Part shown: piece after piece, positions 3,082 to 63,608 of the stretch
Position numbering within the stretch: position 1 is the first letter of the stretch
Layout of the letters: each line of letters opens with the position of its first letter
NCBI GenBank assembly: GCA_965223415.1
Contig: OZ245002.1
Location: 2,336,001-2,400,000, forward strand
From: Myxococcota bacterium
Lineage (GTDB): Bacteria; Myxococcota_A; UBA9160; UBA6930
Length of the DNA stretch: 64,000 nt
Direction: 5' to 3'
Program-made: the position numbers and the translations under genes
The notes under the pieces: generated by a model
Database searches by the model: none
What the model was told of the DNA's origin: nothing
Seen by the model: the letters and a program-made list of their open reading frames with translations, nothing else

Positions 3082-3549
3082 ATGGTTCGTGTCACGATCG
3101 TCGGCCCGGAACGCTTCGCCGAGTGCCTGGCCCTGCGCATGGAGGTCTTCGTCGAGGAGCAGAAGGTCCCCCGGGACGAGGAGGAGGACGGGCTCGATCC
3201 CGAGTGCACGCACTTCCTCGCGACGGCCGGTGGCGAGGCGATCGGCACGGCGCGGCTCCGGCTCCTGCGCGGCGACGGCAAGGCCGAGCGCGTCGCCGTG
3301 CGCGCGGCCGCCCGCGGCCGCGGCATCGGCCGCGCCCTGATGGAAGCGCTGGAGGCCGAGGCGCTGCGCCTCGGCGCCGAGGCGGTCCACCTGAACGCCC
3401 AGCTCGCCGCCATCCCGTTCTACGAGGCCCTCGGCTACACCGCCCGCGGCCCCGAATTCCTCGACGCCGGCATCCCCCACCGCGCCATGACGAAGCAACG
3501 CAACAAACGGAACCGGCCCCAAGACCAACACGGCGATAACGTCGAGGTC
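3082..3549 (+). CDS. GNAT N-acetyltransferase (ElaA/YjcF-like); no stop, reads in-frame into the downstream phosphotransferase
   Basis: LRMEVFVEEQKVP...ERVAV...RGRGIG...LNAQ...FYEALGY...FLDAGIPHRAM. Confidence 0.85.
3495..3530. repeat. 36-bp dispersed repeat, degenerate copy A
   Basis: GCAACGCAACAAACGGAACCGGCCCCAAGACCAACA; 28/36 identical to the copy at 63573, with an exact 19-nt core AACAAACGGAACCGGCCCC. Confidence 0.8.
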
Positions 3550-4599
3550 ATGGGGCTCATCGACACCGAGGCGCTCGCCCGCTGGATGGACGCGCAGCGG
3601 CTTCCCGGCGCCGGCGAGCCGCTCGAGGCGCGTCCCGTCGGTGGCGGGGCTTCGAACGAGCTCTTCGAGATCCGACGGGGCAACGTGCGCATGGCCCTGC
3701 GGCGACCGCCGCGGATCGTTCCCAAGGGCCGCAACGAGACCATGCAGCGCGAGTACCGGGTGATCGCCGCGCTCGCCGACAGCGGTGTCCCCCATACCCG
3801 GGCCATCGCGAGCTGCGACGACACCTCGGTGCTCGGCGCCTGCTTCTACCTGATGGACTTCGTCGACGGCTGGTCGCCGATGGCGCACCTGAACCGCTGG
3901 CCCGAGCCCTTTCACTCGGATCTCTCGCTGCGTCCGGGGCTGGCCTTCGAGCTGGTCGACGCGATCGCGAAGCTCGGGAACGTCGACTGGCGCGCTCGCG
4001 GCCTCGAGGGCTTCGGCCGGCCCGAGGGCTTCCACGAGCGCCAGGTCGACCGTTGGCTGGCCCACCTCGAGGCGTTTCGCTTCCGGGAGATCCCGGGCCT
4101 CGACGTCGCCGCGGAGTGGCTGCGTCGCCACAAGCCGCGGACCTACGAGCCCGGCATCCTGCACGGGGACTACCAGTTCGCGAACGTCATGTTCCAGCAC
4201 GGCGCGCCGGCCCGCATGGCGGCCGTCGTCGACTGGGAGATGGCGACGGTGGGCGATCCGCTGCTCGATCTCGCCTGGGTCGTCATGGGCTGGCCGGACG
4301 AGGGCGAGGATCGGGCCGGCAGCGGCTACGTCGACTACACCGGCATGCCGAACCGCGCCGGGCTCCTCGAGCGCTACGCGTCGGTGAGCGGGAGGCCGGT
4401 GGAGGACATCGACTACTACGTCGTGCTCGCCCGCTTCAAGATGGCCGTCGTCCTCGAGGGGGGCTACGCGCGCTACGTCACCGGCGGCGCCGAGAACCCG
4501 AAGATGGAGGCCTTCGGCCCGATCGTGCTCCAGATGGCGGAGCGCGCCGCCGAGCTCGCCCGCCAGTCGACCCTGCCGCCCCGATCCACGGTCGGATGA
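3550..4599 (+). CDS. APH/ACAD10-like phosphotransferase family protein
   Basis: GGASNELF, LRRPP, REYRVI, LHGDYQFANVMF, VVDWEMATVGDPLLDL. Confidence 0.9.
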   Translation: MGLIDTEALARWMDAQRLPGAGEPLEARPVGGGASNELFEIRRGNVRMALRRPPRIVPKGRNETMQREYRVIAALADSGVPHTRAIASCDDTSVLGACFYLMDFVDGWSPMAHLNRWPEPFHSDLSLRPGLAFELVDAIAKLGNVDWRARGLEGFGRPEGFHERQVDRWLAHLEAFRFREIPGLDVAAEWLRRHKPRTYEPGILHGDYQFANVMFQHGAPARMAAVVDWEMATVGDPLLDLAWVVMGWPDEGEDRAGSGYVDYTGMPNRAGLLERYASVSGRPVEDIDYYVVLARFKMAVVLEGGYARYVTGGAENPKMEAFGPIVLQMAERAAELARQSTLPPRSTVG

Positions 4600-5408
4600 C
4601 CAGCCAAGGCCACAAGCGGGGCGACTACTCGGCGAGGGGACGTCCCTTCGAAGAGGAGCGCCAGCGTCTGCGCCAGCTGGCGGCGTCGATGAACGAAGAG
4701 AGCCAGGATGTCATCCGTCGCCTCGGCATCGCCCCGGGCTGGCGCTGCCTGGAGGTCGGCGCCGCCGAGGGCTCGATGTCCCGCTGGATGGCCGAGCAGA
4801 TCGGCCTCTCGGGCCGCGTGCTCGCCTGCGACATCGATACGCGCTTTCTCGCCGACCTGGCCCTGCGCCAGGTCGAGGTGCGGGAGCTCGACGTCCGCAG
4901 CGACGAGCTCGGCGAAGAGGGCTTCGACCTCGCCTACTGCCGCACCGTCCTCCTGCACCTGCCGGACCCGACGGCGGCGCTCGCGAAGATGCGAGACGCC
5001 CTGGTGTCCGGTGGCTGGCTGTTCGCCCAGGAGCCCGACGTCTGCATCAACCAGCCCGCCGATCCGGACCATCCGGACGCCGCGCTCTTCGAAGGGCTCC
5101 ACCGGCGGGTCTATGACACCATGCGGGAGAAGAAGCTCTACGACACCAGGCTCGGGCGCACGCTTCCCGACACCTTCGCCCGGCTCGGCCTCCGCGAGAT
5201 CGGCGTCGAGGCCCGCGCCGCCTTCGAGCACGGCGGGAGTCCCGCCTCGGAGGCCCAGCGGCTCACCCTGGAGGCGATGGCGTCCCGGCTGGTCCGCAAG
5301 GGCGTGGTGACCGGGGCGGAGCTCGCTCGGGTGGGAGAGCTGCTCGCGGATCCCAGCTTTGCCTACCTGACCGGGCTGCGGGTCTTCATCTGGGGGCGGC
5401 GGGCCTAG
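4596..5408 (+). CDS. class I SAM-dependent methyltransferase
   Basis: CLEVGAAEG motif I, FDLAYCRTVLLHL, LVSGGWL; ATGA overlap with the upstream gene. Confidence 0.85.
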   Translation: MTSQGHKRGDYSARGRPFEEERQRLRQLAASMNEESQDVIRRLGIAPGWRCLEVGAAEGSMSRWMAEQIGLSGRVLACDIDTRFLADLALRQVEVRELDVRSDELGEEGFDLAYCRTVLLHLPDPTAALAKMRDALVSGGWLFAQEPDVCINQPADPDHPDAALFEGLHRRVYDTMREKKLYDTRLGRTLPDTFARLGLREIGVEARAAFEHGGSPASEAQRLTLEAMASRLVRKGVVTGAELARVGELLADPSFAYLTGLRVFIWGRRA

Positions 5409-5550
5409 CCTGCAGTCCCCTCTCTGCATGCCGCATCGCGACTGCGGCGGGAGGTGTCAAACCTGTGTGAAAGCCCGCCGGGGATGTCGCTGGCGCGGTA
5501 CGGTCCTTGCTAATGGAAGAGCGGGACCCGCGCGCCCCCGGGAGCCTTCC

Positions 5551-10640: not shown

Positions 10641-11200
10641 CAGCCGCAGTCGCCGCCTGCCTCTCGGTGCTCACGGGCCCGTCGCGAGAGCACGTGCCAC
10701 GCCACGGCACCCGCGACTAGCGTGCCCGCACCGATCCAACGAGGATCGTCGAGGCCGGCGGCCCATCCCGCCAGGGCGGATCCGCCTGCCGCGACGATCG
10801 CGAGGGGGAGGACGCAGAGCGCCAAGAAGGAGCCGGCGAAGCCGAGGGCGCCGGCGCGGACGAAGCGGCGCAGGCGTCCTGAGCCCTGGGACGGGCTCGT
10901 GCCGGCGTTCGCGAAGGGGTCGATGCCCTCGACCTCCAATCGGAGGGCTTCGCCTCCGGGGAGGGCCCGCAGCTCCCACCCGAGGCCCGGGCAACACACC
11001 CGCTCGAAGCGCACGAGCGCCTCGAGCTCGGCGCGCAGCCCGGGATCGGCCGGGAACTCCCATGCGCGGCCGTTCGCGAGGGCCTCGGAGCGGAGGGCGA
11101 GGGGCAGGAGCTCGCGCCGGATCGCGTCGACGCGGGCTTCGCGCTCCTCGTCGGGCAGGCGGCAGATCTCTTCCAGGCTGGCGGGGTCTTCCCTGGTCAT
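10637..11200 (-). CDS. Cys-rich putative metal-binding protein: soluble ERxCCP domain, two TM helices, C-terminal CGC
   Basis: ICRLP...FERVCCPGL...LALCVLPL...GGDCGC; downstream of a MerR promoter. Confidence 0.6.
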   Translation of the reverse strand: MTREDPASLEEICRLPDEEREARVDAIRRELLPLALRSEALANGRAWEFPADPGLRAELEALVRFERVCCPGLGWELRALPGGEALRLEVEGIDPFANAGTSPSQGSGRLRRFVRAGALGFAGSFLALCVLPLAIVAAGGSALAGWAAGLDDPRWIGAGTLVAGAVAWHVLSRRAREHREAGGDCGC

Positions 11201-11409
11201 GCGCGAATCCTCGGTGCGGTGCGCCGGGCGGCGAGCCCGGCCCACAGGGTCTCCATGACGGCGAACGGCCACGAGCCGATCAGGACGGCGTAGCCCGCGG
11301 ACGCCAGGCATGCGGCGCCGAACGCCCAGCCGAAGGCCGGTCGGCGTTCCTCGAGGGCGTAGGTGAGCGCCATGGCGCCCACCGCGACAGTCCCGAACAG
11401 CTCGATCAC
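11197..11409 (-). CDS. small membrane protein (70 aa, ~3 TM)
   Basis: Hydrophobic ORF; GTG start 7 nt after the -10 box; stop overlaps the next ATG. Confidence 0.7.
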   Translation of the reverse strand: MIELFGTVAVGAMALTYALEERRPAFGWAFGAACLASAGYAVLIGSWPFAVMETLWAGLAARRTAPRIRA

Positions 11410-11416
11410 GGAGGGG

Positions 11417-11447
11417 AGTCTACGACTTGAAGCTCACTTCAAGTCAA
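11417..11447 (-). promoter_or_regulatory. MerR-type promoter and operator
   Basis: Minus strand TTGACT-19 bp-TAGACT with perfect IR GACTTGAAG-CTCA-CTTCAAGTC (11424-11445); the -35 overlaps the merR stop codon. Confidence 0.85.
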
Positions 11448-11833
11448 GGGCGATCGCGCATGGCCCGAGAGCAGTCTTCGAGGGTCGGGCAGTCGCAGCG
11501 GGTCACCGCCTCGAGCACCCGCTTCATGGCCTCGATCTCCTCCGCCCGGCGTTCCAGCTCCTCGAGCTTGCGGTCGGCGAGGGATCGCCAGCGCTCCCCG
11601 GGCGGCGTCCTCCGGCCGAAGCCGCGGAGCAGGCCCTTGATCTCCGCGATGCGGAAGCCAGCGGCCTTGGCCACCTCGATCAGGGCGAGACGGTCGAGGA
11701 TCGACTCCTCGTAGACGCGGGCGCCACCGCGGCGGTCGGCGCGTGGGATCAGGCCCTCGCGCTCGTAGTAGCGCAGGGCCGAGGCAGCGACGCCGCTTCG
11801 CTTCGCCACCTCGCCGATGCGGAGTGCGGTCAT
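11444..11833 (-). CDS. MerR-family regulator, SoxR-like
   Basis: LRIGEVAKRSGVAASALRYYEREGLI HTH; C-terminal CDCPTLEDC. Confidence 0.9.
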   Translation of the reverse strand: MTALRIGEVAKRSGVAASALRYYEREGLIPRADRRGGARVYEESILDRLALIEVAKAAGFRIAEIKGLLRGFGRRTPPGERWRSLADRKLEELERRAEEIEAMKRVLEAVTRCDCPTLEDCSRAMRDRP

Positions 11834-12651
11834 CCGAGCGCGTCGTCGGCCGCGTCCCAGACGTTGCGCGGCGTGTCCGCGCCGAACAGGCGGGCTGCCG
11901 CGCTCTGCTTGTCGATGTGGCCGATGAGTCCGTGGTAGATGCCGAAGCCGCACAGCTCCTGGAGCCGCGGCTCGAAGCTCGCGACCCGGTCGGCGGGAAG
12001 GCCGAGCTGCTGGTTCTCCTGCTGGCGGATCCAGCCGGCGCAGTAGTTCATGGCGATGCCGACGCGGCGCTGGTCCGTGGTGTTGGCGCCGCCGCCGTGC
12101 CAGAGACTGCCGTGCCACACGAGGACGCTGCCCTTGCGCATCTCCGCGGGGATCGACTCGAACTCGGCTCCGTAGGTGGGAGAGTGATCCGCGCGGTGGG
12201 AGCCAGGGACGATCCGGGTCGCACCGTTGGCCTCGGTGAAATCGGTAAGGGCCCACATCGAGTTGCACACCGTCGGCGGATGGGGTCTCGGGATCGGGTG
12301 CAGCTGGTCGTCGGCGTGGATCGGCTGGGCGCGCTCGCCCCGGCCGATCGCCACCGACGAGACGGACGAGATCAGACAGCCCGCGTCGAGAACGCCCTCG
12401 ACGATCGGGAGCACCGACGGATGGACTGGGACCTTCTGCCAGACCGGGCCGTGGGCCAGGAGGTTGTACACCCGAAGGGTCCGATGGCCCTCGAAGCGGT
12501 TCGTCGCGGGCTGGGTGCCGAGCTCGGCCTCGATCCGTTCGAGATCCCCCAGCAGCTCGTCGACCAGCGTCGGCTCGATCGCATCCTCGACGAGGCTGTA
12601 GCCGTCCTCCTCGATGCGCCGAAGGTGAGCCCTCGTCTCGTCCGGTTGCAC
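11830..12651 (-). CDS. phytanoyl-CoA dioxygenase (PhyH) family Fe/2OG dioxygenase
   Basis: QPIHADD, WALTDFTEANGATRIVPGSH, LWHGGG. Confidence 0.9.
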   Translation of the reverse strand: MQPDETRAHLRRIEEDGYSLVEDAIEPTLVDELLGDLERIEAELGTQPATNRFEGHRTLRVYNLLAHGPVWQKVPVHPSVLPIVEGVLDAGCLISSVSSVAIGRGERAQPIHADDQLHPIPRPHPPTVCNSMWALTDFTEANGATRIVPGSHRADHSPTYGAEFESIPAEMRKGSVLVWHGSLWHGGGANTTDQRRVGIAMNYCAGWIRQQENQQLGLPADRVASFEPRLQELCGFGIYHGLIGHIDKQSAAARLFGADTPRNVWDAADDALG

Positions 12652-12655
12652 CCCG

Positions 12656-12691
12656 ACAACTTAACAGACGGAACCGGCCCCTTGCTTAACA
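12656..12691. repeat. 36-bp dispersed repeat, copy B
   Basis: ACAACTTAACAGACGGAACCGGCCCCTTGCTTAACA; 33/36 identical to 63573-63608; contains the Rieske gene TAA. Confidence 0.9.
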
Positions 12692-13663
12692 CAGGTCGGG
12701 GTGGGTGCCGCGGGGGTCGCCTTCGACGTAGAACTGGGCGGCCCATCGGCGGAACTGGAGGATGGGGCCGTCGGCTCGGGAGAGGGCCGGGCGTTCCAGG
12801 TGGATCTTGTGATCGAAGATGACGATGTCCTGGTCTTCCTGGCGGCGGAGCTCGGCGACGAGGGCCTCGCCGACGCGTCGTGAGGCGCCGTCCCGGCGGA
12901 ACCGGTAGTGGAAGCTCACCTCGGTCTCTTCGAAGTCGATCGGCGTGTTGCAGGCGACGAAGCACGCGTCGAGGATGCCGCTGAAGCGGGCGAGGCTCAC
13001 GCCGGGGCCCCAGCTGTCGGTGTCGATGCGGCCGGGCTGGGGGCCGCGGGGGGTCACGAACTCCACCTTCGCCCGCAGGCGGCTCTCGTAGCCGTCGAGC
13101 TCGTAGGCCTCGAGCTCGGGTATCTCGGCGCTGCCGTGCAGCGTCCGCAGGTGGATGAAGTCCGCGCCGTTCTCCGCCATCTCCTGCCACGGCGCGCGCA
13201 CCACCCAGCTCGCACGGACGGGCTCACTCCAGCCGTCGTCGGCCACCTGCGCGATCTCGGGGATCTCCCACAGGGGTGGCTCGTCGCGCGGGTGGTACCA
13301 AGCGAGCACGAGACCGTTGCGGTCGATCGTCGGGTAGGCGTGGATCTTCGCAGCGGCGTTCCGGGTGCCGTCGTAGGGCACGAGGGTGTTCCGGCCTTGG
13401 CCGTCGAAGTGCCACCCGTGGAAGGGGCAGACGATCTCGCAGCCTTCGACTCGTCCGCCGTGGCCCAGGTGGGCTCCCAGGTGCGGGCAGTAGGCGTCCA
13501 TCACGTGGGCCGTGCCGTCCTCGCCGCGCCAGGCGACCAGCTCGCGGTTCAACAGGCGGAAGGGCTTCACCTCGCCCGGCTTCAGCTCTTCCGCGTCGCA
13601 CACCCGGTACCAGCCGAAGGGTAGGCAGCGGTAGAAGGGGAACCGCTCGAGGGAGCTGGGCAT
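12686..13663 (-). CDS. Rieske non-heme iron oxygenase (KshA / sterol desaturase-like)
   Basis: CPHLG...CPFHGW Rieske motif, ENGADFIHLRTLH Fe ligands, QDIVIFDHK. Confidence 0.85.
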   Translation of the reverse strand: MPSSLERFPFYRCLPFGWYRVCDAEELKPGEVKPFRLLNRELVAWRGEDGTAHVMDAYCPHLGAHLGHGGRVEGCEIVCPFHGWHFDGQGRNTLVPYDGTRNAAAKIHAYPTIDRNGLVLAWYHPRDEPPLWEIPEIAQVADDGWSEPVRASWVVRAPWQEMAENGADFIHLRTLHGSAEIPELEAYELDGYESRLRAKVEFVTPRGPQPGRIDTDSWGPGVSLARFSGILDACFVACNTPIDFEETEVSFHYRFRRDGASRRVGEALVAELRRQEDQDIVIFDHKIHLERPALSRADGPILQFRRWAAQFYVEGDPRGTHPDLC

Positions 13664-13726
13664 GGCGATCCACTCTAGAATCGCCACCCATTCGCGGGCA
13701 AGGGAGACCGCGGGCAAGGGAGATTC

Positions 13727-14819
13727 ATGGCCTTCGCGCTCTCACCGGAGCAGCACGAGCTCCGGGATACATTGCGCCGCTTCTTCTCCGACGTCTCTCC
13801 GCCGTCGGAGGTGCGGCGCTGGATGGAGACCGAGGCCGGCTTCGACCCGGTCCTGTGGCGGCGCATGGGGGACGAGCTGGGCCTTCATGACGCGGCCTCC
13901 CTGGGCTTCGAGGAGCTCGCCCTCGTCGCGCAGGAGCTGGGCCGCGCCCTCGTTCCCGGCCCCTACTTCGGGTGCGTGGTGCTCGCAGGACGTTGCCTGG
14001 CCCAGGCGGCGCAGAGCGACGAGCGGGACGCGCTGCTCGCGGCGATCGCCCGGGGCGAGATCGCGAGCGCCGCCTGGGCGGCGCCGGGGCGGAGCTGGGA
14101 TCCCGCCGAGATCGAGCTGCGACACTCGGCCGGGCGCCTGGACGGGACCGCGGGGTACGTGCTCGACGGCCACGTGGCTTCGCACCTCCTCTTCGTCGCC
14201 CGGGTCGCCGGCACCGACCGGCTCGGCCTCTACGCCGTTGACGAAGGGGCCCCGGGGGCTCGAGCGGCGGCGTCTCCGCACCCTCGATCGCACCCGGAGG
14301 CTGGCGCAGCTCTACCTCGCGTCCGTCCCGGCGCGGTGTCTCGACGACGACTTCGCCGCCGGCTTCGACCGGGCCCTGGTCGAGGCCAACGTGGCGCTCT
14401 GCGCCGAGAGCGTCGGCGGCTTCGAGGCGACGCTCGAGATGGCCCTGGCCCACGCCCGCGAGCGCGTGCAGTTCAGCCGGGTGATCGGCTCCTTCCAGGC
14501 GGTGAAGCACAAGCTCGCCGACCTCTGGATCCTCTTCGAAGGAGCGCGCACGGCGACCCGGGAGGCGGTGCTCGCCGTCACCGGCGGCGACCCGGAGGCG
14601 CCGCTCCTCGCCAGCGTCGCGCGCGCCTACGTCGGCGACGCGGCCCTCCGCGCCGCCTTCGACAACATCCAGGTCCACGGCGGCATCGGCTTCACCTGGG
14701 AGTACGACGCGCACCTCTACCTGCGCCGCGCCCAGCTCGCGGCCCGGCTGCTCGGTGATCCGGTCTTCCATCGCGAGCGGGTGGCGCGCCTGCTGGGCGA
14801 GATGGAAGGAGGCAGGTAG
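13727..14819 (+). pseudogene. acyl-CoA dehydrogenase (FadE-type partner subunit) with a +1 frameshift in a G5 run at 14254-14258 (probably a sequencing error)
   Basis: MAFALSPEQ...ELGRALVPGP in one frame; ERVQFSRVIGSFQAVKH...QVHGGIGFTWEYDAHLY in the other. Confidence 0.85.
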
Positions 14820-14821
14820 AC

Positions 14822-16042
14822 GTGCGGCGCGAGGACACCCCCGAGGAGGCGGCCTTCCGGGCCGAGGCGCGGGCCTGGCTGGAGGCGAACGCGCCGGCGG
14901 AGGGCTTCGCCCGCGCGGGCCACGCCCACACGCCCGAGGCGGAAGCCGCCTGGTTCGAGCGCTGTCGCGCCTGGCAGCGAACGCTCTTCGACGGGGGCTG
15001 GGCGGCCATCACGCTGCCGGAGAACGTGGGCGGCCGCGGCGGCACGCCCGCCCAGCAGCTGATCTTCGACGAGGAGCAGGCGGCCTTCGACGTCACCACC
15101 GGCTTCCTCCACTCGAGCCTCGCGCTGATCGTCCCCGCTCTCCTCACCTATGGAAGTGACGAGCAGAAGGAGCGCTTCCTCCGGCCGACCCTGCGCGGCG
15201 ACGTCACCTGGTGTCAGCTCTTCAGCGAGCCCGAGGCCGGCTCCGACCTGGCGGCGCTGCGTTGCCGCGCCGAGAGGGACGGCGACGAGCTGGTCGTGAA
15301 CGGCCAGAAGCTCTGGACCACCAGCGCCCAGTTCTGCGAGTGGGGCTTCCTGCTGGTGCGCAGCGATCCGGAGGTCCCCAAGCACCAGGGGATCAGCTTC
15401 GTCCTCGTCGACATGAAGAGCCCGGGCATCGAGGTGCGACCGCTGCCGACCATCACCGGCGGGCGCCACTTCAACGAGGTCTTCTTCAGCGACGTTCGCG
15501 TTCCCCTGGAGAACGTGGTGGGCGGGCTCGGCGGCGGCTGGGCGGTGGCGCGCCTGGTGCTCGCCCACGAATCGGTGTCGATCGGGACCAGCGCCGCGCG
15601 GAACGACGCCACCCTGGACCTGGTGCGTGTGGCCAAGGCGCGGGGCTCGTTCGAGGACCCGGTCGTTCGTCAAGGCCTGGCCGCGAGCTACATCGAGGAG
15701 CGGGTGCTCGGCTGGCTCGGCGATCGCATTCGCAACGCCGTCCTCGACGGCGAGCATCCGGACGTGGACGGCTCGGTGGTGAAGGTGCTCTGGGCCGAGA
15801 GCCGGGCTCGGAAGGGCGAGCTGGCCATGCAGGTGCTCGGCCCGGACGCGATGCTCGACGGCGATGACACCGAGGCCCGTGGCTTCTGGCAGAACCTCCT
15901 GCTCGACCGCTACATGGGCACGATCGGCGGCGGTACCGTCGAGGTGCACCGCAACGGCATCGGGGAGCGGGTCCTCGGCTTGCCCCGGGAGCCCCGGCCG
16001 GATCGCGAGGTGCCCTTCCGCGAGCTCAAGACTTCGCGGTAG
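14822..16042 (+). CDS. acyl-CoA dehydrogenase (FadE-type)
   Basis: WCQLFSEPEAGSDLA, NGQKLWT, FNEVFFSDVRVP, TIGGGTVEV. Confidence 0.95.
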   Translation: MRREDTPEEAAFRAEARAWLEANAPAEGFARAGHAHTPEAEAAWFERCRAWQRTLFDGGWAAITLPENVGGRGGTPAQQLIFDEEQAAFDVTTGFLHSSLALIVPALLTYGSDEQKERFLRPTLRGDVTWCQLFSEPEAGSDLAALRCRAERDGDELVVNGQKLWTTSAQFCEWGFLLVRSDPEVPKHQGISFVLVDMKSPGIEVRPLPTITGGRHFNEVFFSDVRVPLENVVGGLGGGWAVARLVLAHESVSIGTSAARNDATLDLVRVAKARGSFEDPVVRQGLAASYIEERVLGWLGDRIRNAVLDGEHPDVDGSVVKVLWAESRARKGELAMQVLGPDAMLDGDDTEARGFWQNLLLDRYMGTIGGGTVEVHRNGIGERVLGLPREPRPDREVPFRELKTSR

Positions 16043-16070
16043 CATCGCGCCCCCCGACGGAGGAGACACC

Positions 16071-16871
16071 GTGCCCGACGCCATCGTCGAACGCGAAGAC
16101 CACCTGATGACCCTCACCATGAACCGTCCGGAGCGCTACAACGCGCTCTCTGGCGACATGCTGATCCGCATGTACGATGCCTACCAGGAGGCGTCTCGCG
16201 ATCCGGAGATCCGCTGCATCATCGTCACCGGCGCCGGCGGGAACTTCTGCTCCGGCGCCGACCTGAAGGCGATGTCCGGCGACGCGGGAGAGGGCGACGA
16301 TGTCATCGACGTCCAGGCGCGCATGGCCGAGGACCCGGACATCGTCTACAAGGCGCTCTTCCGTCATTACCGCCCGACCAAGCCGATCATCGCCGCGGTG
16401 GAAGGCGTCGCCATCGCGGGGGGCACCGAGATCCTGCAGGCGATGGAGATCCGGGTCGCCGGGGAGAGCGCGCGCTTCGGCGTGTCCGAGGCGAAGTGGT
16501 CCCTCTACCCGATGGCCGGCTCCGCCGTGCGCCTGCCCCGCCAGATCCCCTACACCCAGGCCGCCGAGATCCTGCTGACCGCGAAGCACATCAAGGCGCC
16601 GGAAGCCAAGCAGATCGGCCTCATCGGCCACGTCGTCCCCGACGGCCAGGCCCTCGCCAAGGCGCGCGAGATCGCCGACGTGATCTGCAGCAACGGCCCC
16701 CTCGCCGTCGAGGCCATCACCCGCACCCTCCACGAGTGCGACGGCATGGAGCTCGACCAGGCCCTGCGCCACGAGTGGGCGTACGGCCAGGCCGTCTTCG
16801 CCAGCCAGGACGCCAAGGAAGGCCCCCTCGCCTTCGCCCAGAAGCGCAAGCCCAACTTCCAACGCAAGTAA
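16071..16871 (+). CDS. echA19: enoyl-CoA hydratase, closely resembling mycobacterial EchA19
   Basis: AIAGGTEILQ...RVAGESARFGVSEAKWSLYPMAGSAVRLPRQIPYT...GLIGHVVPDGQAL; symbol assigned from recalled sequence similarity. Confidence 0.8.
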   Translation: MPDAIVEREDHLMTLTMNRPERYNALSGDMLIRMYDAYQEASRDPEIRCIIVTGAGGNFCSGADLKAMSGDAGEGDDVIDVQARMAEDPDIVYKALFRHYRPTKPIIAAVEGVAIAGGTEILQAMEIRVAGESARFGVSEAKWSLYPMAGSAVRLPRQIPYTQAAEILLTAKHIKAPEAKQIGLIGHVVPDGQALAKAREIADVICSNGPLAVEAITRTLHECDGMELDQALRHEWAYGQAVFASQDAKEGPLAFAQKRKPNFQRK

Positions 16872-16942
16872 GAAGCGGGGCCAGAGTTAAGAATTCAGTT
16901 CCCTTCGGGGAACTGAATTCTTAACTCTGGCCCCGCTTCTTA
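16869..16942. repeat. perfect palindrome (35-bp arms, TTCG loop), REP/REPIN-like
   Basis: TAAGAAGCGGGGCCAGAGTTAAGAATTCAGTTCCC-TTCG-exact reverse complement; both ends are the TAA stops of the convergent genes. Confidence 0.95.
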
Positions 16943-18409
16943 AGCCGGGTAGCCGATGGCCTTGGTCTGGAGGTACTCCTGGAAGCCCTCGACACCGTGC
17001 TCGCGGCCGAGGCCGCTCTCCTTGACGCCGCCGAAGGGGGTGTCGGGGCCGAACCACATGCCGCCGTTCACGCCGAGGGTGCCGGTGCGGATGCGGCGGG
17101 CGACGGCCATGGCGCGCTCCAGGGAGCCGGACTGGACGGAGCCGGAGAGCCCGTAGCGGCTGTTGTTGGCGATGCGCACGGCGTCGTCGTCGTCGTCGAA
17201 GGGAATCACTGCCAGCACCGGGCCGAAGATCTCCTCCTGCGCGATGGTCGCGTCCGGGTCCACGTCCACGAACAGGGTCGGCTCGACGAACCAGCCCTTC
17301 TCGAGGTGGGCCGGGCGGCCGCCGCCGACCAGGCAGCGCGCGCCCTCCTGCTTGCCCTTCTCGATGTAGGCGAGGATCCGGTCCCGCTGCCTGGCGCTGA
17401 TCTGAGGGCCCTGGGAGTTGGCGATGTCGGAGGGATCGCCGTAGGCGATGGCCTCGAAGCCTGCCTTCAGCCGCTCCACGCCCTCGTCGTAGCGCGAGCG
17501 CGGCAGCAGCATGCGGGTCGTGATGGCGCAGCCCTGTCCGCCGTGCATGCAGATCCCCGCGCCGCTCGGCCCCACCAGGTCGAAGTTCGCGTCGTCGAGG
17601 AAGATCTGGGCGGACTTCCCGCCGAGCTCCAGGAACACGCGCCTCAGGCTCGGCGCGCAGCGCGCCATGATGTGCTTCCCGATCGCGGTCGAGCCGGTGA
17701 AGCTGACCAGGTCCACCCGCGGGTCGCCGGTGAGCAGGTCGCCTACCTCCGCTGGGTCGCTCGCGGTGACGATGTTCAGCACGCCGGGCGGCAGGTCCGT
17801 CTCCTCCGCGATCAGCTTGCCGATCCAGGTGGCGCTCCAGGGCGTGTCCGGTGCCGCCTTCAGCACGGCCGTGCAGCCGGCCATCAGCGCCGGCACCAGC
17901 TTCGACAGGTTCAGCATGAAGGGGAAGTTCCAGGGCGTGATCAGCCCCGCGACACCCACCGGCTCGTGGATCACCCGCCGGTGGCTCTTGATCCCGAAGA
18001 ATTCATGGACGCCGAGCTCCCGCTCCCACGCGAACTTCTCCGCGCACTCGACGTCCCACAGCATGTCCTGGATGCAGGAGTCCTGCTGGACGGCGTAGGT
18101 GAGCGGGAGCGGCGCGCCCACCTCGGCCACGATCTGCGGCCGCAGCTCCTCCTTGCGCCGCTCGAGGGCCGCCTGGAGCTGACGCAGGCACCGGGAGCGG
18201 AGATCGAGATTCGCGGACCACTTCGTCTCGTCGAAGGCGCGACGGGCCGCGGCGATCGCCCGGTCCATGTCGGCGGCGCTCGCGTCGGCGACCCGGCCGA
18301 TCTCTTCTTCGGTCGCCGGGTTCACGTTGCCGTAGGTGCGGCCGCCCGCTGCCTCCACAAGGGCTCCGTCGATCAGCAGGCGGCTCTCGGCCTGGGGGAA
18401 GTCGGTCAT
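16940..18409 (-). CDS. aldehyde dehydrogenase
   Basis: ITPWNFP, SFTGST, LELGGKS, GQGCA, EEIFGPV, PFGGVKESG. Confidence 0.95.
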   Translation of the reverse strand: MTDFPQAESRLLIDGALVEAAGGRTYGNVNPATEEEIGRVADASAADMDRAIAAARRAFDETKWSANLDLRSRCLRQLQAALERRKEELRPQIVAEVGAPLPLTYAVQQDSCIQDMLWDVECAEKFAWERELGVHEFFGIKSHRRVIHEPVGVAGLITPWNFPFMLNLSKLVPALMAGCTAVLKAAPDTPWSATWIGKLIAEETDLPPGVLNIVTASDPAEVGDLLTGDPRVDLVSFTGSTAIGKHIMARCAPSLRRVFLELGGKSAQIFLDDANFDLVGPSGAGICMHGGQGCAITTRMLLPRSRYDEGVERLKAGFEAIAYGDPSDIANSQGPQISARQRDRILAYIEKGKQEGARCLVGGGRPAHLEKGWFVEPTLFVDVDPDATIAQEEIFGPVLAVIPFDDDDDAVRIANNSRYGLSGSVQSGSLERAMAVARRIRTGTLGVNGGMWFGPDTPFGGVKESGLGREHGVEGFQEYLQTKAIGYPA

Positions 18410-18426
18410 GTCCGGCTCTCCTCTTG

Positions 18427-25310: not shown

Positions 25311-25474
25311 TGTCATTTCTCACGGGCATGACTCACCTTTTCTCACGGGCATGACCCAGGCCTGACCGCGGTTTTCTCACGAGCATGACCCACCCCAGAT
25401 GGGGGGGGCTCAGGAGGAGGCCGGTCCCGTGGCCGACCCAGGCCATTCTGCGGCGCCAGAGGAGGCGCAGGCAG

Positions 25475-27878: not shown

Positions 27879-28030
27879 CGCCAAACAAGGAGCGTGCTAC
27901 CTCATCCACCGGCCCGGGACCCATGGGTCAACCCCGTGAGAATACCTGGGTCATGCCCGCGGGAATCGACAATTGCTGCTGGTGGGTGACCCGCGGTGGC
28001 GCCTAGACTTGGGCTAGGTCTGAATCATCA

Positions 28031-37054: not shown

Positions 37055-37171
37055 ATGACCACTCCCGAGAGCGTCTCCGGCTCCTGCCTGTGCGGCGCCG
37101 TCCGGTTCACGGTGCGCATGCCCACGACCTTCTGCGGCCACTGCCACTGCACCATGTGCCGCCGCCTATGA
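37055..37171 (+). pseudogene. GFA (CENP-V) family N-terminal fragment ending at the palindrome
   Basis: MTTPESVSGSCLCGAVRFTVRMPTTFCGHCHCTMCRRL*; the C-terminal CxxC half is absent. Confidence 0.8.
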
Positions 37172-37242
37172 AGAAACGGGGCCAGAGTTAAGAATTCAGT
37201 TGCCCAAAGGCAACTGAATTCTTAACTCTGGCCCCGTTTCTT
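37171..37242. repeat. perfect palindrome (34-bp arms, 4-nt loop), second copy
   Basis: AAGAAACGGGGCCAGAGTTAAGAATTCAGTTGCC-CAAA-exact reverse complement. Confidence 0.95.
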
Positions 37243-38398
37243 AACTCATGCCGAGGATGGCGATGCCGCAGGTCTGGGGGGCGCCGCCGATGTTGTGGCT
37301 GAGGGCGAGGGTGGCGTTCTCGACCTGGCGGCCGGTGGCGCGGCCCTGGAGCTGGAGGACGTTCTCGTAGATCATGCGCACACCGGTGGCGCCGGTGGGG
37401 TGGCCGAAGGTCTTGAGGCCGCCGTCGGTGTTGACCGGGAGCTCGCCGCCCAGCTCGAAGGTGCCGCTTGCGACGTGGTCCTTGGCTTCGCCCTTCTTGC
37501 ACAGGCCCAAGTCCTCGTAGCTGAGCAGCTCGGTCAGGGTGAAGCAATCGTGGAGCTGCACCACGTCGAGCTCGCGGAAGGGCTCGCGGATGCCGGCCTG
37601 CTCGTAGGCGTCCTTGGCGGCGTAGAGGGTGGGCTTCCAGGCGAGGAAGTCGAAATCCGGGTCGCGCTGGGGATGCTCGGCGGTGGCGACGGTCACCGCC
37701 TTCACCAGCGGCGCGTCGTCCCGGAAGCTCTTTGCCAGGTCCGTCCGGGTGATGATCGCCGCCGCGGCACCGTCGCTCTGGGCGGCGCAATCGTAGAGGC
37801 CGAACGGCCAGCTGATGATGCGCGCCTTCAGCACGTCGTCCACGGTGATCTCGCGCTTCAGCATCGACTTCGGCGCCAGCGTGCCGTTGTGGTGGTTCTT
37901 CACGGCGATCTTCGCCAGGTCCTCGCGGCCGGTGTCGTAGGTTTCGAAGTAGCGCGCCGCGCACAGGGAGAACCAGCCGGCGGGGGTGGCGGGGAGCCCG
38001 CGCACCTTGTCGAAGTTCACGCTCGGGCCGGAGACGCCCCGGTCCTTGGGCTTGTCGAAGCCCACCACCAGCACCGTGTCGTAGAGGCCCGCCGCCACCG
38101 AGAACACGCCGCAGCGGAAGGCGTCGGTGCCGGTCTGGCAGTAGTCCATCAGCATGGTGATGGGCTTGCCGAAGAGCTTCAGCGCCTCGGCCACCTCGCC
38201 GCTGCCTTCGCGGGGATAGACGGCGCCGGCGAAGACGGCCTCGATCTGCCGGTCCGGGTCCTCGATGCCCGCGTCCTCGTAGGCCTCGTAGACCGCGTCG
38301 ACGATCATGTCCTCGCGGCTGCTGGTCCAGTTCTCGCCGAACTGGCAGCAGCCGACGCCCACCACGGAGACCTTGTCGCGAATGGCTTCGGGGTTCAA
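37241..38398 (-). CDS. thiolase (SCP2/archaeal-type acetyl-CoA acetyltransferase)
   Basis: DYCQTG, DGAAAAI, LHDCFT, NTDGGL..GHPTGATG, HNIGG. Confidence 0.9.
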   Translation of the reverse strand: MNPEAIRDKVSVVGVGCCQFGENWTSSREDMIVDAVYEAYEDAGIEDPDRQIEAVFAGAVYPREGSGEVAEALKLFGKPITMLMDYCQTGTDAFRCGVFSVAAGLYDTVLVVGFDKPKDRGVSGPSVNFDKVRGLPATPAGWFSLCAARYFETYDTGREDLAKIAVKNHHNGTLAPKSMLKREITVDDVLKARIISWPFGLYDCAAQSDGAAAAIITRTDLAKSFRDDAPLVKAVTVATAEHPQRDPDFDFLAWKPTLYAAKDAYEQAGIREPFRELDVVQLHDCFTLTELLSYEDLGLCKKGEAKDHVASGTFELGGELPVNTDGGLKTFGHPTGATGVRMIYENVLQLQGRATGRQVENATLALSHNIGGAPQTCGIAILGMS

Positions 38399-51396: not shown

Positions 51397-52844
51397 GTCG
51401 CAACACCCTCTTCTCGGTCTTCGCCGTCTTCCTGGGGCTCGCCGCTGGCTGGTGGGGTCGCAGCGTCCTGGGCGGCGAGCAGGCCCACGACGCCTCGCCC
51501 GCCGCGTCCGAGGGCGGGCCCTGTCGAGGCGGCACTGCTCCCCTGTACTGGAAGGCTCCGATGGACCCCACCTACATCCGGCAGCAGCCGGGCATGTCTC
51601 CGATGGGCATGGACCTGGTGCCCGTGTGTCCCGGCGAGGCCGGGGCGCCCTCGGAAGGCGCCGTCGAGATCGATCCCCACACCGTCCAGAACATCGGCGT
51701 CCGCACGCAGACCGTGACCCGCCGTGATCTCGCCCGCTCGATCCGCGCGGTGGGCCGCGTCGTCTACGACGAGCGGCGAGTGGAGCACGTCCACACCAAG
51801 GTGCAGGGCTGGGTCGAGCGGCTCCACGTGGACTTCGTGGGCCAGGAGGTGCGGCGCGGGCAGCCCCTCCTCGAGGTCTACTCCCCGGAGCTGGTCGCGA
51901 CCCAGGAGGAGCTGCTCGTCGCTGCACGCTATCGGGAGGCCACGAGCACGAGCCCCTTCGAAGACGTGCGGGGAGGGGGCGCCTCCCTCTACGAGGCCAC
52001 GCGGCGCCGTCTCGAGCTGTGGGACATCCCGGATCGGGACATCGACCGGCTCCTCGAGACGGGCGAGATCCAGAAGACGCTCACCATGTATGCGCCCACC
52101 CGCGGCGTCGTCACCTCGCTCGGAGTGCGCGCCGGCATGGAGGTCGGGCCGAACCAGAACCTCTACACCATCGCCGACCTGTCGCAGGTCTGGGTGGTCG
52201 CCGACGTCTACGAGTACGAGCTCCCGTGGCTCGCCCTCGGCCAGACCGGCACCGTCGAGCTCGCGTACCTTCCCGGCAAGACGTTCTCCGGCCCGCTCAC
52301 CTACGTATCGCCGTTCCTCGACTCGAAGACCCGCACCGCCGAGGTGCGACTCGAGCTCCCCAACCCGGACGGAGCGCTCCGGCCGGAGATGTTCGGGAAC
52401 ATGATCATCCGCGGTGCGCCGCGCGAAGCGGTCGTCGCAGTCCCTTCCGAGGCCGTGATCCGATCCGGGCGGCGGAGCCTCGTCGTCGTCGCGCTCGGCG
52501 AGGGGCGCTTCGCCCCGCGTCCCGTCTCCATGGGCCTCGACTCGGGTGACGGCTGGCTCGAGGTGCAAGGCGGGTTGTCGGCCGGCGAGGAGATCGTCGT
52601 ATCGAGCCACTTCCTGATCGACAGCGAGAGCAACCTCCAGGAGGCCGTCCGCAAGCTTCTCGCCGCCGGCGCTCCGGAGGGCGAGGGGCACGCGGGTCAC
52701 GAGATGCCGTCGGCCGCGGATCCGCACGCGGGTCACGAGATGCCGTCGGCCGCGGATCCGCACGCGGGTCACGAGATGCCGGGGGCATCGGACGCGCCTC
52801 CAGCCGGTGACCAAGGCGGTGCCCACGACGGCGGCCAGGAGTAG
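51393..52844 (+). CDS. cusB: RND membrane-fusion protein, CusB-like
   Basis: YWKAPMDP..PGMSPMGMDLVP, YSPELVATQEE, LRPEMF, FLIDSES; His/Met-rich tail. Confidence 0.9.
   Translation: MSRNTLFSVFAVFLGLAAGWWGRSVLGGEQAHDASPAASEGGPCRGGTAPLYWKAPMDPTYIRQQPGMSPMGMDLVPVCPGEAGAPSEGAVEIDPHTVQNIGVRTQTVTRRDLARSIRAVGRVVYDERRVEHVHTKVQGWVERLHVDFVGQEVRRGQPLLEVYSPELVATQEELLVAARYREATSTSPFEDVRGGGASLYEATRRRLELWDIPDRDIDRLLETGEIQKTLTMYAPTRGVVTSLGVRAGMEVGPNQNLYTIADLSQVWVVADVYEYELPWLALGQTGTVELAYLPGKTFSGPLTYVSPFLDSKTRTAEVRLELPNPDGALRPEMFGNMIIRGAPREAVVAVPSEAVIRSGRRSLVVVALGEGRFAPRPVSMGLDSGDGWLEVQGGLSAGEEIVVSSHFLIDSESNLQEAVRKLLAAGAPEGEGHAGHEMPSAADPHAGHEMPSAADPHAGHEMPGASDAPPAGDQGGAHDGGQE
52689..52781 (+). repeat. 36-bp coding tandem repeat (HAGHEMPSAADP x2.6)
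   Basis: CACGCGGGTCACGAGATGCCGTCGGCCGCGGATCCG exact at 52689 and 52725, partial at 52761. Confidence 0.95.
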
Positions 52845-60095: not shown

Positions 60096-60116
60096 ATGCA
60101 ACGCCCCCGGTTGCGT

Positions 60117-62101: not shown

Positions 62102-62165
62102 GGAGATGGGTTTACATCAAAAATTTTACGATGTCTACTCAAAGCTGAGATACCGTGCGCCGGCC

Positions 62166-63581
62166 ATGGCCCTGGTCTCGTACGCCGCCGCCTTCGCCGA
62201 GCTCGCCGCCGAGGCCCCGGACCGCCTGGCCCTGGTCTTCGAGGGCCGGGAGGTCCGCCGCGGCGAGCTCGATCGCCAGGCGAACCGGCTCGCCCGGTCC
62301 TTCGCCGAGCGCGGGGTCTGTGAGGGCGACCGCGTGGTGATCGCCCTCCCGAACTCGGTGGAGTTCGTGGCCGCGACCCTGGCGGTCTGGAAGCTCGGAG
62401 CCGTGCCCACGCCCGTCTCGTCCCGCCTGCCGGAGCGGGAGAGGCAGGAGATCGTCGCCCTGGCCGATCCGCGGCTGATGGTGGCGAAGGCGGAGGACGC
62501 CGTCCCTGCGGAGGGGCTCTCGGACGCGCCGCTTCCCGACCGCACGGCGCCCCATTCCCAGGCGATCGCGTCCGGCGGCAGCACCGGCCGGCCGAAGCTC
62601 ATCGTCGACGCGAACCCCGCCGCCTTCGATCCCGAGGCGGCCCACTACGGGGTCGGCGCCGGCACGGTGGTGCTCACGCCGGGCCCGCTCTTCCACACCG
62701 GGCCGTTCATCAACACCCGCGAGGCCCTGGTGCGCGGGGGCGTGGTCGTCCTCATGAGTCGCTTCGATCCCGAGGAGGCGCTCCGGCTGATCACCGAGCG
62801 CCGGGTGAACTGGGTGAATTTCGTGCCCACGATGCTTCACCGGATCTGGCGGCTGCCCGACGCGGTGAAGCAGGAGGCGGACCTCTCGTCGCTGCAGCGC
62901 GTCGTCTCGACCGGCGCCGCCTGCGCGGACTGGCTGATGCGCGCCTGGATCGAGTGGGTCGGGCCCGACCGCATGTTCGAGGCCTACGGCGGCACCGAGC
63001 GGATCGGCGGCACGTTGATCTCCGGCCGCGAGTGGCTCGAGCATCCCGGCTCCGTCGGGAAGCCCACCGGCGGCCGCCAGGTGCGGATCCTCGGCCCCGA
63101 CGGCGACGAGCTGCCTCCCGGCGAGGTCGGAGAGATCTTCATGCTGCCCCCCGGCGGGCAGGGCTCCACCTATCGCTACCTGGGCGCCCGGGCCAAGGCG
63201 ACCAGCGACGGCTGGGAGACGTTGGGCGATCTCGGCTACCTGGACGAGGACGGCTTCCTGTACCTGGTCGATCGCCGCACCGACATGATCGTGACCGGCG
63301 GCGAGAACGTGTACCCGGCCGAGGTGGAGGGCGCGATCGACGCGCACCCCGCCGTTCAGTCGAGCGCGGTGATCGGCCTGCCGGACGACGACCTGGGCGC
63401 CCGCATCCACGCCATCGTCGAGGCCGATCCGCCCGTGAGCGACGAGGCGCTGCGTGCCCACCTCGCCGAGCGCCTCGTCCGTTACAAGATCCCCCGCACC
63501 TTCGAGTTCGTGCAGGAGCCCCTCCGCGACGACGCCGGCAAGGTCCGCCGCTCCCGCCTCCGCGAAGAGCGCACAACTTAA
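62166..63581 (+). CDS. acyl-CoA ligase (bile-acid-CoA ligase-like)
   Basis: SGGSTGRPK, PGPLFH, YGGTE, TLGDLG, RDDAGKVRR. Confidence 0.9.
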   Translation: MALVSYAAAFAELAAEAPDRLALVFEGREVRRGELDRQANRLARSFAERGVCEGDRVVIALPNSVEFVAATLAVWKLGAVPTPVSSRLPERERQEIVALADPRLMVAKAEDAVPAEGLSDAPLPDRTAPHSQAIASGGSTGRPKLIVDANPAAFDPEAAHYGVGAGTVVLTPGPLFHTGPFINTREALVRGGVVVLMSRFDPEEALRLITERRVNWVNFVPTMLHRIWRLPDAVKQEADLSSLQRVVSTGAACADWLMRAWIEWVGPDRMFEAYGGTERIGGTLISGREWLEHPGSVGKPTGGRQVRILGPDGDELPPGEVGEIFMLPPGGQGSTYRYLGARAKATSDGWETLGDLGYLDEDGFLYLVDRRTDMIVTGGENVYPAEVEGAIDAHPAVQSSAVIGLPDDDLGARIHAIVEADPPVSDEALRAHLAERLVRYKIPRTFEFVQEPLRDDAGKVRRSRLREERTT

Positions 63582-63608
63582 CAAACGGAACCGGCCCCTA
63601 ACTTAACA
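63573..63608. repeat. 36-bp dispersed repeat, copy C
   Basis: ACAACTTAACAAACGGAACCGGCCCCTAACTTAACA; contains the stops of both convergent genes. Confidence 0.9.

Follow-up and report, generated by a model that had tools for sequence, protein, structure and literature searches.

What are the five short elements that punctuate a 64-kb stretch of contig OZ245002.1 (the window), and why do their edges so often meet stop codons? A preliminary description regarded them as one mobile, non-autonomous family with a common TAAG end, which caps genes and supplies their stops. The comparison of the window with its own genome (G000) and with related genomes (G001-G005 and G013) indicates two families, each tied to its own transposase gene, and a strand asymmetry around the elements that extends into neighbouring coding sequence.

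Repeat elements of the window

A recheck of the window recovered all five elements at their reported positions, two as perfect hairpins and three as 36-bp units (Table 1). They represent two repeat families, hairpins of 74 bp (A) and units of 36 bp (B). The hairpin arms measure 35 bp (16869-16942) and 34 bp (37171-37242), being 100% complementary around a 4-nt loop. Identities among the three 36-bp units, which make up a single family, are 75-92%. Only the GGGGCC core is common to A and B; since they differ beyond it and have separate transposase genes, a single family with a TAAG end is ruled out. The copy at 3495 contains neither TAAG nor TTAA. By itself, GGGGCCRG is not diagnostic, as 7 of its 24 window matches lie in elements. 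The restriction of TTAA to the elements did hold in the window (10 of 10, spread over four of the five elements), and the whole genome contains 254 such tetramers.

Table 1. Coordinates of the elements and associated features in the window
Feature	Position	Strand	Remarks
Family B unit, GCG-box subtype, degenerate outer box	3495..3530	-	Gives no stop
Family B unit, AAG-box subtype	12656..12691	-	Outer box contains the Rieske TAA, 12686-12688
Halo example, family A	16620..17190	.	Fourfold sites, last 50 codons: C in 21/23 and 25/29
Family A hairpin	16869..16942	.	Two inverted arms, GGGG inward, 35-bp stem, TTCG loop
Truncated GFA-family gene, 38 aa	37055..37171	+	Pfam PF04828 positions 2-32 of 115
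Family A hairpin	37170..37243	.	Thiolase TAA inside; adjoins TGA of the 38-aa GFA stub
Halo example, family B monomer	63320..63860	.	+ strand C-G skew +0.17 in the left 200 nt, -0.39 in the right 200 nt
Family B unit, AAG-box subtype	63573..63608	-	Hydrolase TAG and acyl-CoA ligase TAA supplied

Six gene ends named earlier do lie inside elements, namely those of enoyl-CoA hydratase (16871), ALDH (16940), thiolase (37241), Rieske (12686), acyl-CoA ligase (63581) and hydrolase (63598). The GFA fragment, listed with them, stops at a TGA (37169-37171) against the family A hairpin, and its sequence has no second copy in the genome. The hairpin at 16869-16942 contains two TAA stops, one for the enoyl-CoA hydratase gene and one for the ALDH gene convergent with it, both at ancestral positions; G001 carries a different TIR family at this site. 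The 3495 unit is read through in frame, inside a single open frame (3082-4599) that joins a GNAT acetyltransferase domain to a phosphotransferase domain; in four relatives, the GNAT gene has a TAG or TGA 8 codons past the aligned end. An Rfam search of the whole window gave nothing at gathering scores. Weak miRNA-type matches on the hairpin were far below the cut-off and were taken as generic hairpin matches.

Transposase genes and architecture of the repeats

The genome-wide search for TAAG-N3/4-GGGGCCRG returned 53 matches, and the genome holds 92 A and 98 B arms, numbers that chance does not explain. Four transposase/TIR systems (A, B, C and D) were found, with 225 elements and 84-98 arms per family. 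The expectation of a Y1/HUH gene flanked by the motif was borne out for A and B outside the window. Family A arms flank a Y1 gene at 1,714,162-1,715,028 (encoding P0001), and family B units flank another at 3,528,067-3,528,888 (encoding P0002); the proposed tie between a non-autonomous repeat and a Y1/HUH enzyme with GGGG ends is supported in this way for each family. Inverted GGGG-core arms stand on both sides of all four transposase genes. In each arm, an outer box is followed after about 3 nt by a GGGG(C/A)C core, beyond which the box is repeated on the inner side; the core reads GGGGCCAG in A, GGGGCCGG in B and GGGGACGT in C and D.

The transposases are products of single-copy genes and are 271-288 aa long. 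All three intact proteins match PF01797 above the cut-off, with H60-x-H62 and Y119 (HGH in P0003) and 57-59 residues between the HUH motif and the tyrosine. HTH_23 is above the cut-off for P0003, and both HTH_23 and Bac_DnaA_C are below it for P0002; P0001 has no Pfam HTH match and simply aligns across the HTH region. The D-family gene is frameshifted, yet 84 D arms are present. A PDB sequence search gave no solved relative of the Y1 core and one weak match in the HTH region.

Such genes correspond to TIRYTs, in which a Y1 HUH gene with a C-terminal HTH lies between inverted repeats starting with GGGG (PMC3733652; PMC6006769). According to the accessible portions of these accounts, the TIRtrons/TIRYTs of Di Nocera, De Gregorio and Rocco (2013, PMC3733652) are the TnpA-Y1 subclass 2.1, subgroup 2.1.2, of Quentin et al. 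(2018, PMC6006769), recognized by about 58-67 aa between HUH and the catalytic tyrosine and by an HTH like Bac_DnaA_C, HTH_23 or HTH_28. The present systems have the Y1 core, the C-terminal HTH, flanking TIRs rather than REPs and dispersed TIR copies, with cleavage and binding being predicted activities. Because each family matches the inverted repeats around its own Y1/HUH-HTH gene, the elements are assigned to TIRtron/TIRYT repeats. They are probably transposase-less copies of the TIRs that belong to two TIRYT genes, each present once, and it is likely these enzymes that make and overwrite them in place.

Arm variants are common to both arms only from about position -3 inward. At outer positions -7 to -12 the composition is biased, 87% of A arms having T at -9, and the two ends vary independently there. 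Box similarity follows the HTH helix (partial r of 0.23) no more closely than the Y1 domain (0.22), a point against box recognition by the HTH. Repeated boxes of at least 6 nt occur in 50 of 61 TIRtrons against 45% in shuffles, a count that leaves out the 19 of 80 loci without a TIR pair. No target-site duplication was detected in A, B, C or D, where the longest flanking direct repeat is no longer than in shuffles (p 0.09-0.99). B monomers show no preference for a replication strand (34 vs 30), the replichores being poorly defined here. End stutters affect 8 of 354 arms in G000 against 40 of 4550 controls when scored with our own patterns, and by eye they are more visible in G005.

Placement at gene ends and turnover among relatives

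The predicted enrichment at stop codons is strong. A stop lies within -25 to +15 nt of 264 of the 354 outer ends, compared with 4.9% of random intergenic controls and 10.6% of convergent-only ones. Among the 225 elements, 131 are in convergent, 87 in tandem and 6 in divergent contexts, and 1 is intragenic. The idea that the elements supply the stops applies to part of the copies: most stops are at ancestral positions, and nearly all those of family C lie outside the element. As many stops stand just beyond the element edge, "abuts" is preferable to "supplies". Box letters are seen to overprint host codons that match them, as in GAVK* compared with GAIK*.

TIRYT genes occupy orthologous loci in G001, G003, G004, G005 and G013, the clades of their tree mostly corresponding to loci, and the dispersed repeats of each genome match its resident transposase gene. 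The B locus of G001 carries an enzyme with a different TIR, which has 106 dispersed copies. In G005, a TIR is found at 19 of 45 gene ends that have an element in G000 and at 17 of 386 other ends, and a hand count gave a different family at 7 of 17 shared loci. Fixation at orthologous sites had been named as the result that would indicate a regulatory site. Many sites are indeed common with a relative, but they often carry a different family or a remnant, which points to turnover at long-lived sites rather than to a conserved host regulatory sequence. TIR repeats diverge and replace one another at sites common to relatives, as in REPIN-RAYT systems. The mobility of the elements is something we infer. 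The relatives are too distant for base-level empty sites. No empty allele was seen among the joints listed from four public sequencing runs over window positions 11000-20000, two of these runs perhaps coming from the source sample, and no RNA run was among those listed as containing this DNA.

The strand-skew halo

Around the elements lies a halo of about 250 nt on both sides, in which the strand running into the element is A+C-rich and the strand running out is G+T-rich, regardless of gene direction. The median fourfold C-G skew is 0.70 in 290 element-associated genes and 0.12 in 3942 element-free genes. The halo is reversed in genes whose starts face an element, with a median of -0.11 (n=67) against 0.16 (n=4165). 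Twofold sites show G-to-A and T-to-C shifts, and amino-acid use also changes, with Gly, Val and Glu decreasing and Thr, His, Gln and Lys increasing. Ordinary convergent ends have a skew of 0.08-0.20 and no halo, and TIRtrons in loci below 60% GC have none either (21 of 48 arms positive).

The halo tracks element presence among orthologs, and the different family of G001 is likewise surrounded by it (39 of 41 outer flanks positive). Orthologs without an element retain part of the halo (0.23 against 0.09, and 0.23 against 0.16), so the halo could predate insertion. Monomers have a skew of 0.59 on the inner side and 0.81 on the outer side, and outward-facing dimers of G001 carry the halo on 8 of 8 flanks. 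The asymmetry is therefore not strictly tied to arm polarity, unlike what a simple nick at the outer end would predict. It resembles the strand bias found around an origin of replication.

Proposed mechanism and alternative explanations

In the mechanism proposed for the TIRYT copies, the HTH would bind the repeated boxes and the HUH domain would nick near the outer end, after which the flanks would be trimmed and re-copied for about 200-300 nt. Such trimming and re-copying could account for the disappearance of spacer DNA, for outer junctions that vary independently and for a halo with A+C on the inflowing and G+T on the outflowing strand. Only products with an intact protein C-terminus would survive selection, and ends may for this reason halt at, or overprint, stop codons. 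The halo of about 250 nt likely records DNA cutting and re-copying at the repeats. A bolder version, tentative at present, treats TIRYTs as tiny initiators: a DnaA-like HTH would bind the boxes, the HUH domain would nick, and about 250 nt would be re-made outward on both sides, repeatedly and at unchanged sites, so that the repeat would act as a local mutation centre with origin-like asymmetry.

A different origin of the pattern, which we consider unlikely, is that the repeats are transcript-end signals selected by the host, terminators or mRNA stabilisers in a lineage without Rho, with TIRYT only seeding them and the halo reflecting selection at the RNA level. The scarcity of elements between divergent genes (6 of 225), the persistence of sites across species and the lack of rho in G000, G001, G002, G003 and G004 fit this explanation, as does the 63573 unit, which takes the place of a short, plain GC-rich spacer in G001, where the C-termini are longer. 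As RNA, A hairpins have a folding energy of -67 kcal/mol; however, B monomers without appreciable folding (-0.7 and -3.8 kcal/mol) behave alike, and a terminator scan of 12000-18000 found 0 sites. The reversal of the halo in genes starting at an element, its absence at ordinary convergent ends and the shifted amino-acid use also speak against selection on transcripts.

Pre-existing C-rich gene ends or stops might instead attract the elements, with the halo preceding them. The bias at outer positions -7 to -12, albeit with independent ends, the partial halo of element-free orthologs and the overprinting of matching host codons agree with such target choice. It is nevertheless improbable: only 88 of 3942 element-free genes exceed a skew of 0.7, 57 of which lie within 75 nt of words resembling a box or core (by a loose, uncontrolled pattern), TTAA boxes are too rare genome-wide to serve as host targets, and target duplication is absent. 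In enterobacterial BIMEs, Rho utilisation tracts lie upstream of a pausing hairpin, and the C-rich, G-poor tracts could be Rho utilisation sites selected in the same arrangement. The sense strand does have more C than G ahead of the stop, and an incomplete rho lies at the edge of a G005 contig. This least probable of the explanations is largely refuted by the absence of rho from G000, which argues against Rho-loading sites. PF07497 and TIGR00767 are unmatched in this single-contig, 97%-complete genome, tblastn with a relative's Rho gave only a 22%-identity ATPase-like match, and the syntenic pgeF-prfA interval (names read from the proteins) contains two other genes. Furthermore, the halo is strong in both G000 and G001, neither of which has a rho match.

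Relation to known systems and implications

The TIRYT assignment agrees with the accessible descriptions of TIRtrons in that repeats are scattered singly, as dimers and in groups, a genome has several genes, each with its own TIR, and the TIRs overlap the end of the transposase gene itself. The GGGGWSAS motif is a departure, since the three cores do not follow it; only some TIRs have it and others are unrelated (PMC3733652, in the portions available), so it is not required. TIR families are called "moderately abundant" there and TIRYTs possibly "less productive" than RAYTs (PMC3733652), unlike the 84-98 arms per family here and the 106 in G001. As far as the accessible text of these accounts goes, repeated boxes, stop abutment, fixed loci and a skew halo, all seen here, are absent from it. 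Di Nocera 2013 and Quentin 2018 were the only TIRYT papers found by a search covering mainly non-subscription literature, and no account of TIRs abutting stops or of a skew halo turned up in the main texts of mostly non-subscription papers.

REPIN-RAYT systems have, in the parts of the sources available, a single-copy, vertically inherited transposase at a conserved locus and non-autonomous hairpin doublets (PMC5581495; bioRxiv 10.1101/2021.07.10.451892). Within an extragenic space, repeats of one type are reported to be "overwritten" by those of another (REPORTH, bioRxiv 10.1101/2024.10.14.618302), and GTAG REPs often supply the stop codons of neighbours (PMC3733652). Here, too, each gene is present once at a conserved locus, the repeats correspond to the gene residing there, and replacement occurs at shared sites. 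The present arms differ in lacking a GTAG/CGTC tag and in not being palindromic (GTAG occurs in 1 of the 92 A arms and in 3 of the 98 B arms, and single arms barely fold), and the RAYT equivalog NF047646 scores 57.8-61 bits, below its cut-off of 80. With IS200/IS605, the proteins have in common the Y1_Tnp (PF01797) core with HUH and tyrosine, while single copy number, TIRs that are not subterminal hairpins, the extra HTH, the length of the protein and the lack of replication-strand bias set them apart. The repeats resemble DDE MITEs (ERIC, NEMIS and RUP, as far as described in PMC3733652) as short non-coding inverted repeats next to genes, and differ in the HUH/Y1 partner and in having no target-site duplication above shuffles.

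As the element class is already known, the basic finding is ordinary. Subclass 2.1 is equated with RAYT Group 1 (bioRxiv 10.1101/2020.03.09.984088), which the accessible portions of published accounts treat as repeat-poor (PMC5581495; PMC3733652); its flanking 16-mers average 12 copies, compared with 57 and 140 in REPIN-associated groups (PMC5581495). In the genome studied here, the TIRYT/Group 1 lineage acts as a full REPIN-RAYT system, with fixed genes, about 90-100 arms per family and site replacement. The halo is large, does not depend on gene direction and occurs where Rho is missing. Were it a mutational scar, it would show where and how TIRYT enzymes cut, with the repeat steering the evolution of neighbouring protein ends. 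Should the initiator reading be true, repeat-directed and strand-specific mutation would be rewriting codons and C-termini in about 6% of the genes in a Rho-less lineage, and the genome would hold a direct record of subclass 2.1 Y1 action. Four enzyme-repeat pairs in one genome, together with swapped pairs at the loci of relatives, make specificity testable in vitro.

Elements of the window and their families

The five dispersed elements listed in the preliminary description are all present and real, the kind of repeat proposed there was correctly guessed, and the class is already known. Two are perfect hairpins with arms of 35 and 34 bp and loops of 4 nt (family A), and three are 36-bp units (family B). 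The claim that every TTAA of the window lies in these elements is borne out by ten of ten occurrences in the 64 kb, but these fall in four of the five elements; the copy at 3495 has neither TTAA nor a stop codon. By itself, the motif GGGGCCRG has 24 occurrences in the window, of which 7 are in elements. An Rfam search of the window returned nothing at gathering scores.

The window corresponds to G000:C1:2,336,001-2,400,000. Its source genome (G000) is a single 5.83-Mb contig with 71% GC and 97% completeness, in which a PF01797 search detected eight Y1 genes. Four of them, one frameshifted, constitute a single group of 271–288 aa with an HUH motif, a tyrosine 57–59 residues downstream and a C-terminal HTH-like tail; the best relatives of the transposases are in records labelled Myxococcota or Deltaproteobacteria. 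On both sides, each grouped gene has inverted repeats of its own, whose GGGG points inward. Families A and B surround two of these genes, while families C and D, attached to the other two, have zero copies in the window. Scanning of G000 recovered 92 arms of family A, 98 of B, 88 of C and 84 of D, which assemble into 225 elements, gene-flanking arms counted. Inward hairpins among these number 44 in family A, 36 in C, 40 in D and 9 in B; family B also has 64 monomers, and the remaining elements are monomers or tandems. Family D reaches its 84 arms even though its own gene is the frameshifted one. Further or decayed TIR-like families (terminal inverted repeats, with TGAACGCAA-type arms and others) lie behind genes with skewed flanks and were missed by the four patterns.

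Coordinates of the elements, transposase genes and neighbouring features
Feature	Location	Strand	Remark
Family B units	window 3495; 12656; 63573		
Family A hairpins	window 16869-16942; 37170-37243		
GNAT acetyltransferase and APH-family phosphotransferase in one open frame	window 3082-4599	+	bridged by the B unit at 3495
IS21-type element	window 25311-27971		IstA-like gene 25475-27187, IstB (PF01695), terminal inverted repeats with internal repeats
Three tandem 36-nt repeats	window 52688-52795		near end of gene 51393-52844
Family A arms around Y1 gene P0001	G000 1,714,136 and 1,715,100	+ and -	right arm contains the TGA of P0001
Family B units around Y1 gene P0002	two on each side		gene-flanking
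Family D transposase gene (L007)	G000:C1 3,235,830-3,236,755		frameshifted
Three related Y1 genes (other group) and one IS200-like gene	G000:C1 13,429-14,115; 4,075,206-4,076,090; 5,825,453-5,826,337; 5,490,161-5,490,679		PF01797 search
TIR-like family examples, among many sites	G000:C1 1,605,455; 1,761,128; 2,733,648; 376,751		behind halo-bearing genes
Site where relatives have rho	G000:C1 about 1,910,260-1,913,300		757-aa gene and 128-aa gene
Empty family C gene locus of G005 (L196)	G005:C415		ortholog of G000 859,075-860,017

Stop codons at the element ends

A custom dicodon model gave 5145 gene calls, of which the 4887 with a score of at least 20 were retained. For 264 of 354 outer arms and 201 of 225 elements, a same-strand stop lies within -25 to +15 of the GGGG core, against 4.9% of random intergenic and 10.6% of convergent-gap controls. 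Of the elements, 131 lie between convergent genes, 87 between tandem and 6 between divergent ones, and 1 is intragenic, compared with 815 convergent, 3257 tandem and 814 divergent junctions in the genome. The earlier remark that TAA is otherwise a rare stop holds, with 74 of 211 TAA stops located at most 40 nt from an element. The proposal that elements supply the stops holds for part of the arms (A, 53/92 at -9, -8, -7 or +11; B, 38/90) and mostly fails for family C, in which 68 of 88 stops lie outside, at -25 to -12.

Orthologs of the hydratase (5/5) and thiolase (2/2) stop at the same position with TGA or TAG, as do 4 of the 10 ALDH homologs listed, paralogs among them. In 745 kb of the related genome G005, length is equal in 25/45 element-capped genes versus 262/386 others, and differs by at most two residues in 35/45 versus 330/386. 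The last codons are often overprinted by box letters, with the residues kept. Spacer DNA has likely been trimmed as far as selection permits. Exceptions to the stop-respecting ends are found at 37055, with a GFA stub, and at 3495, where the element is read through and the GNAT part of the shared frame ends as a separate gene in four relatives; this frame is possibly an element-made fusion or a lost stop.

Strand skew around the elements

The elements are surrounded by a halo of strand skew. The strand that enters an element has a C-G skew of about +0.2 to +0.3, which fades by 300–400 nt; a switch from + to - occurs at all five window elements. Fourfold sites have a median skew of 0.70 in 290 genes ending at elements versus 0.12 in 3942 others, and -0.11 in 67 genes starting near elements versus 0.16 in 4165 others. 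At twofold sites, element-ending genes use GAA for 27% of Glu (13% in others) and GAT for 6% of Asp (18%), a shift reversed in start-facing genes (GAA 5%, GAT 29%). Thus, the inflowing strand is A+C-rich and the outflowing strand G+T-rich, a known pattern at replication origins.

Among orthologs, the skew tracks element presence: it is 0.62 in G000 versus 0.23 in G005 for 26 genes with an element only in G000, and 0.23 versus 0.35 for 22 genes with one only in G005, over backgrounds of 0.16 and 0.09. The halo recurs at the repeat family of the related genome G001 (41 loci; positive in 39/41 outer and 38/45 inner flanks). It is also seen at TIRtrons (gene plus TIRs) in GC-rich loci (56/68 arms positive) but not in GC-poor ones (21/48); these loci may overlap with the genomes compared here.

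The obvious rival explanation is that the halo tracts are Rho loading sites. However, rho was not found in G000 by two profiles (PF07497, TIGR00767) or tblastn, and its syntenic position is occupied by other genes. The gene is patchy in the family, being matched in 15 of 33 genomes and, as a partial gene, in one of five other genus members. A simple outer-nick model is opposed by the skew of inner sides and outward dimers, while the outer sides of family B are stronger than the inner ones (0.81 vs 0.59; -0.47 vs -0.15). We infer the cause of the halo, as well as mobility of the elements and binding of their boxes.

Architecture of the arms

Each arm consists of an outer box, about 3 nt, a GGGG(C/A)C core and an inner box. 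The two boxes repeat in direct orientation in families A and B, but are inverted relative to each other in C and D. Family B has two subtypes by its inner boxes (47 GCG, 42 AAG, 9 other), which are concordant with the outer box in 32/98 (GCG/GCG) and 27/98 (AAG/AAG) arms. Single arms barely fold, and recognition of A and B as REP-type hairpins is therefore unlikely. A TIR pair was recovered at 61 of 80 related loci, and 50 of these 61 have a repeated word of at least 6 nt, versus 45% in shuffles. The HTH may read these repeated boxes; a partial Mantel test on 54 proteins did not separate it from Y1 (r 0.19–0.23 vs 0.22).

In hairpins, the two arms share private variants at about -3 and further inward (A -2, 10/11; A +6, 7/9) and do not share those between -7 and -12 (A -7, 0/16; A -9, 0/10). 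The copied unit is thus symmetric, and the outer junctions are settled one by one. Target duplication was not found at the elements.

Relation to known systems

The G000 families fit every testable feature of the TIRtron/TIR family except the GGGGWSAS motif, which the consulted parts of two reports ascribe to some TIRs only (PMC3733652; PMC6006769). The system works like REPIN-RAYT, but membership is ruled out by the missing GTAG tag and a protein below the RAYT cut-off. Repeat ends providing stop codons are reported for GTAG REPs in the consulted part of PMC3733652. In a literature search covering mainly freely accessible main texts, neither abundant, locus-fixed TIRYT systems (Y1/HUH genes with TIRs) nor comparable halos were found. 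What is new within this known class is fixed genes with repeat turnover, tight stop abutment and a Rho-independent halo.

Inheritance and turnover in related genomes

Exact-type patterns of A and B matched one of 32 other family genomes, most of them fragmented assemblies: G005, with 21 and 37 matches. Its A and B genes lie between the same neighbours as in G000, at 60% and 65% identity, and its B-locus boxes are AAG versus GCG in G000. At the B locus, G001 has a 52%-identical enzyme with a different TIR (106 copies there, 0 in the other four genus members), and the relative G013 a fourth TIR. The C locus is common to two further relatives, G003 and G004, again with a different TIR. In a 27-protein tree, genus A-locus and B-locus proteins form supported clades; C-locus proteins are not resolved.

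Of 54 G005 arms, 37 are met by an inrunning G000 ortholog (at least 60% identity), and 23 of these have an element in G000. By hand count, the 23 represent 2 gene loci plus 17 loci of repeats, and 7 of the 17 have a different family. In bulk G005 DNA, from contigs picked because they contain A or B arms and with paired genes that are not independent, a TIR lies at 19/45 gene ends that have an element in G000 versus 17/386 others (odds ratio 15.9). At window site 16869, G001 carries its own family. Overwriting of repeats at the same site is also described for REPINs in the part consulted of the REPORTH preprint (bioRxiv 10.1101/2024.10.14.618302).

The empty C locus of G005 retains only a short GGGGGAC...GTTCCCC remnant between two stops. 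The G001 family occurs as dimers that face outward and as tandem arrays of as many as six units (L265-L268, L271, L278, L302-L304), whereas G000 has mostly inward dimers. G005 arms (e.g., loci L136, L151, L162 and L167) show stuttered partial outer-box copies stacked outside their ends, and G005 stops lie farther from the core than those of G000.
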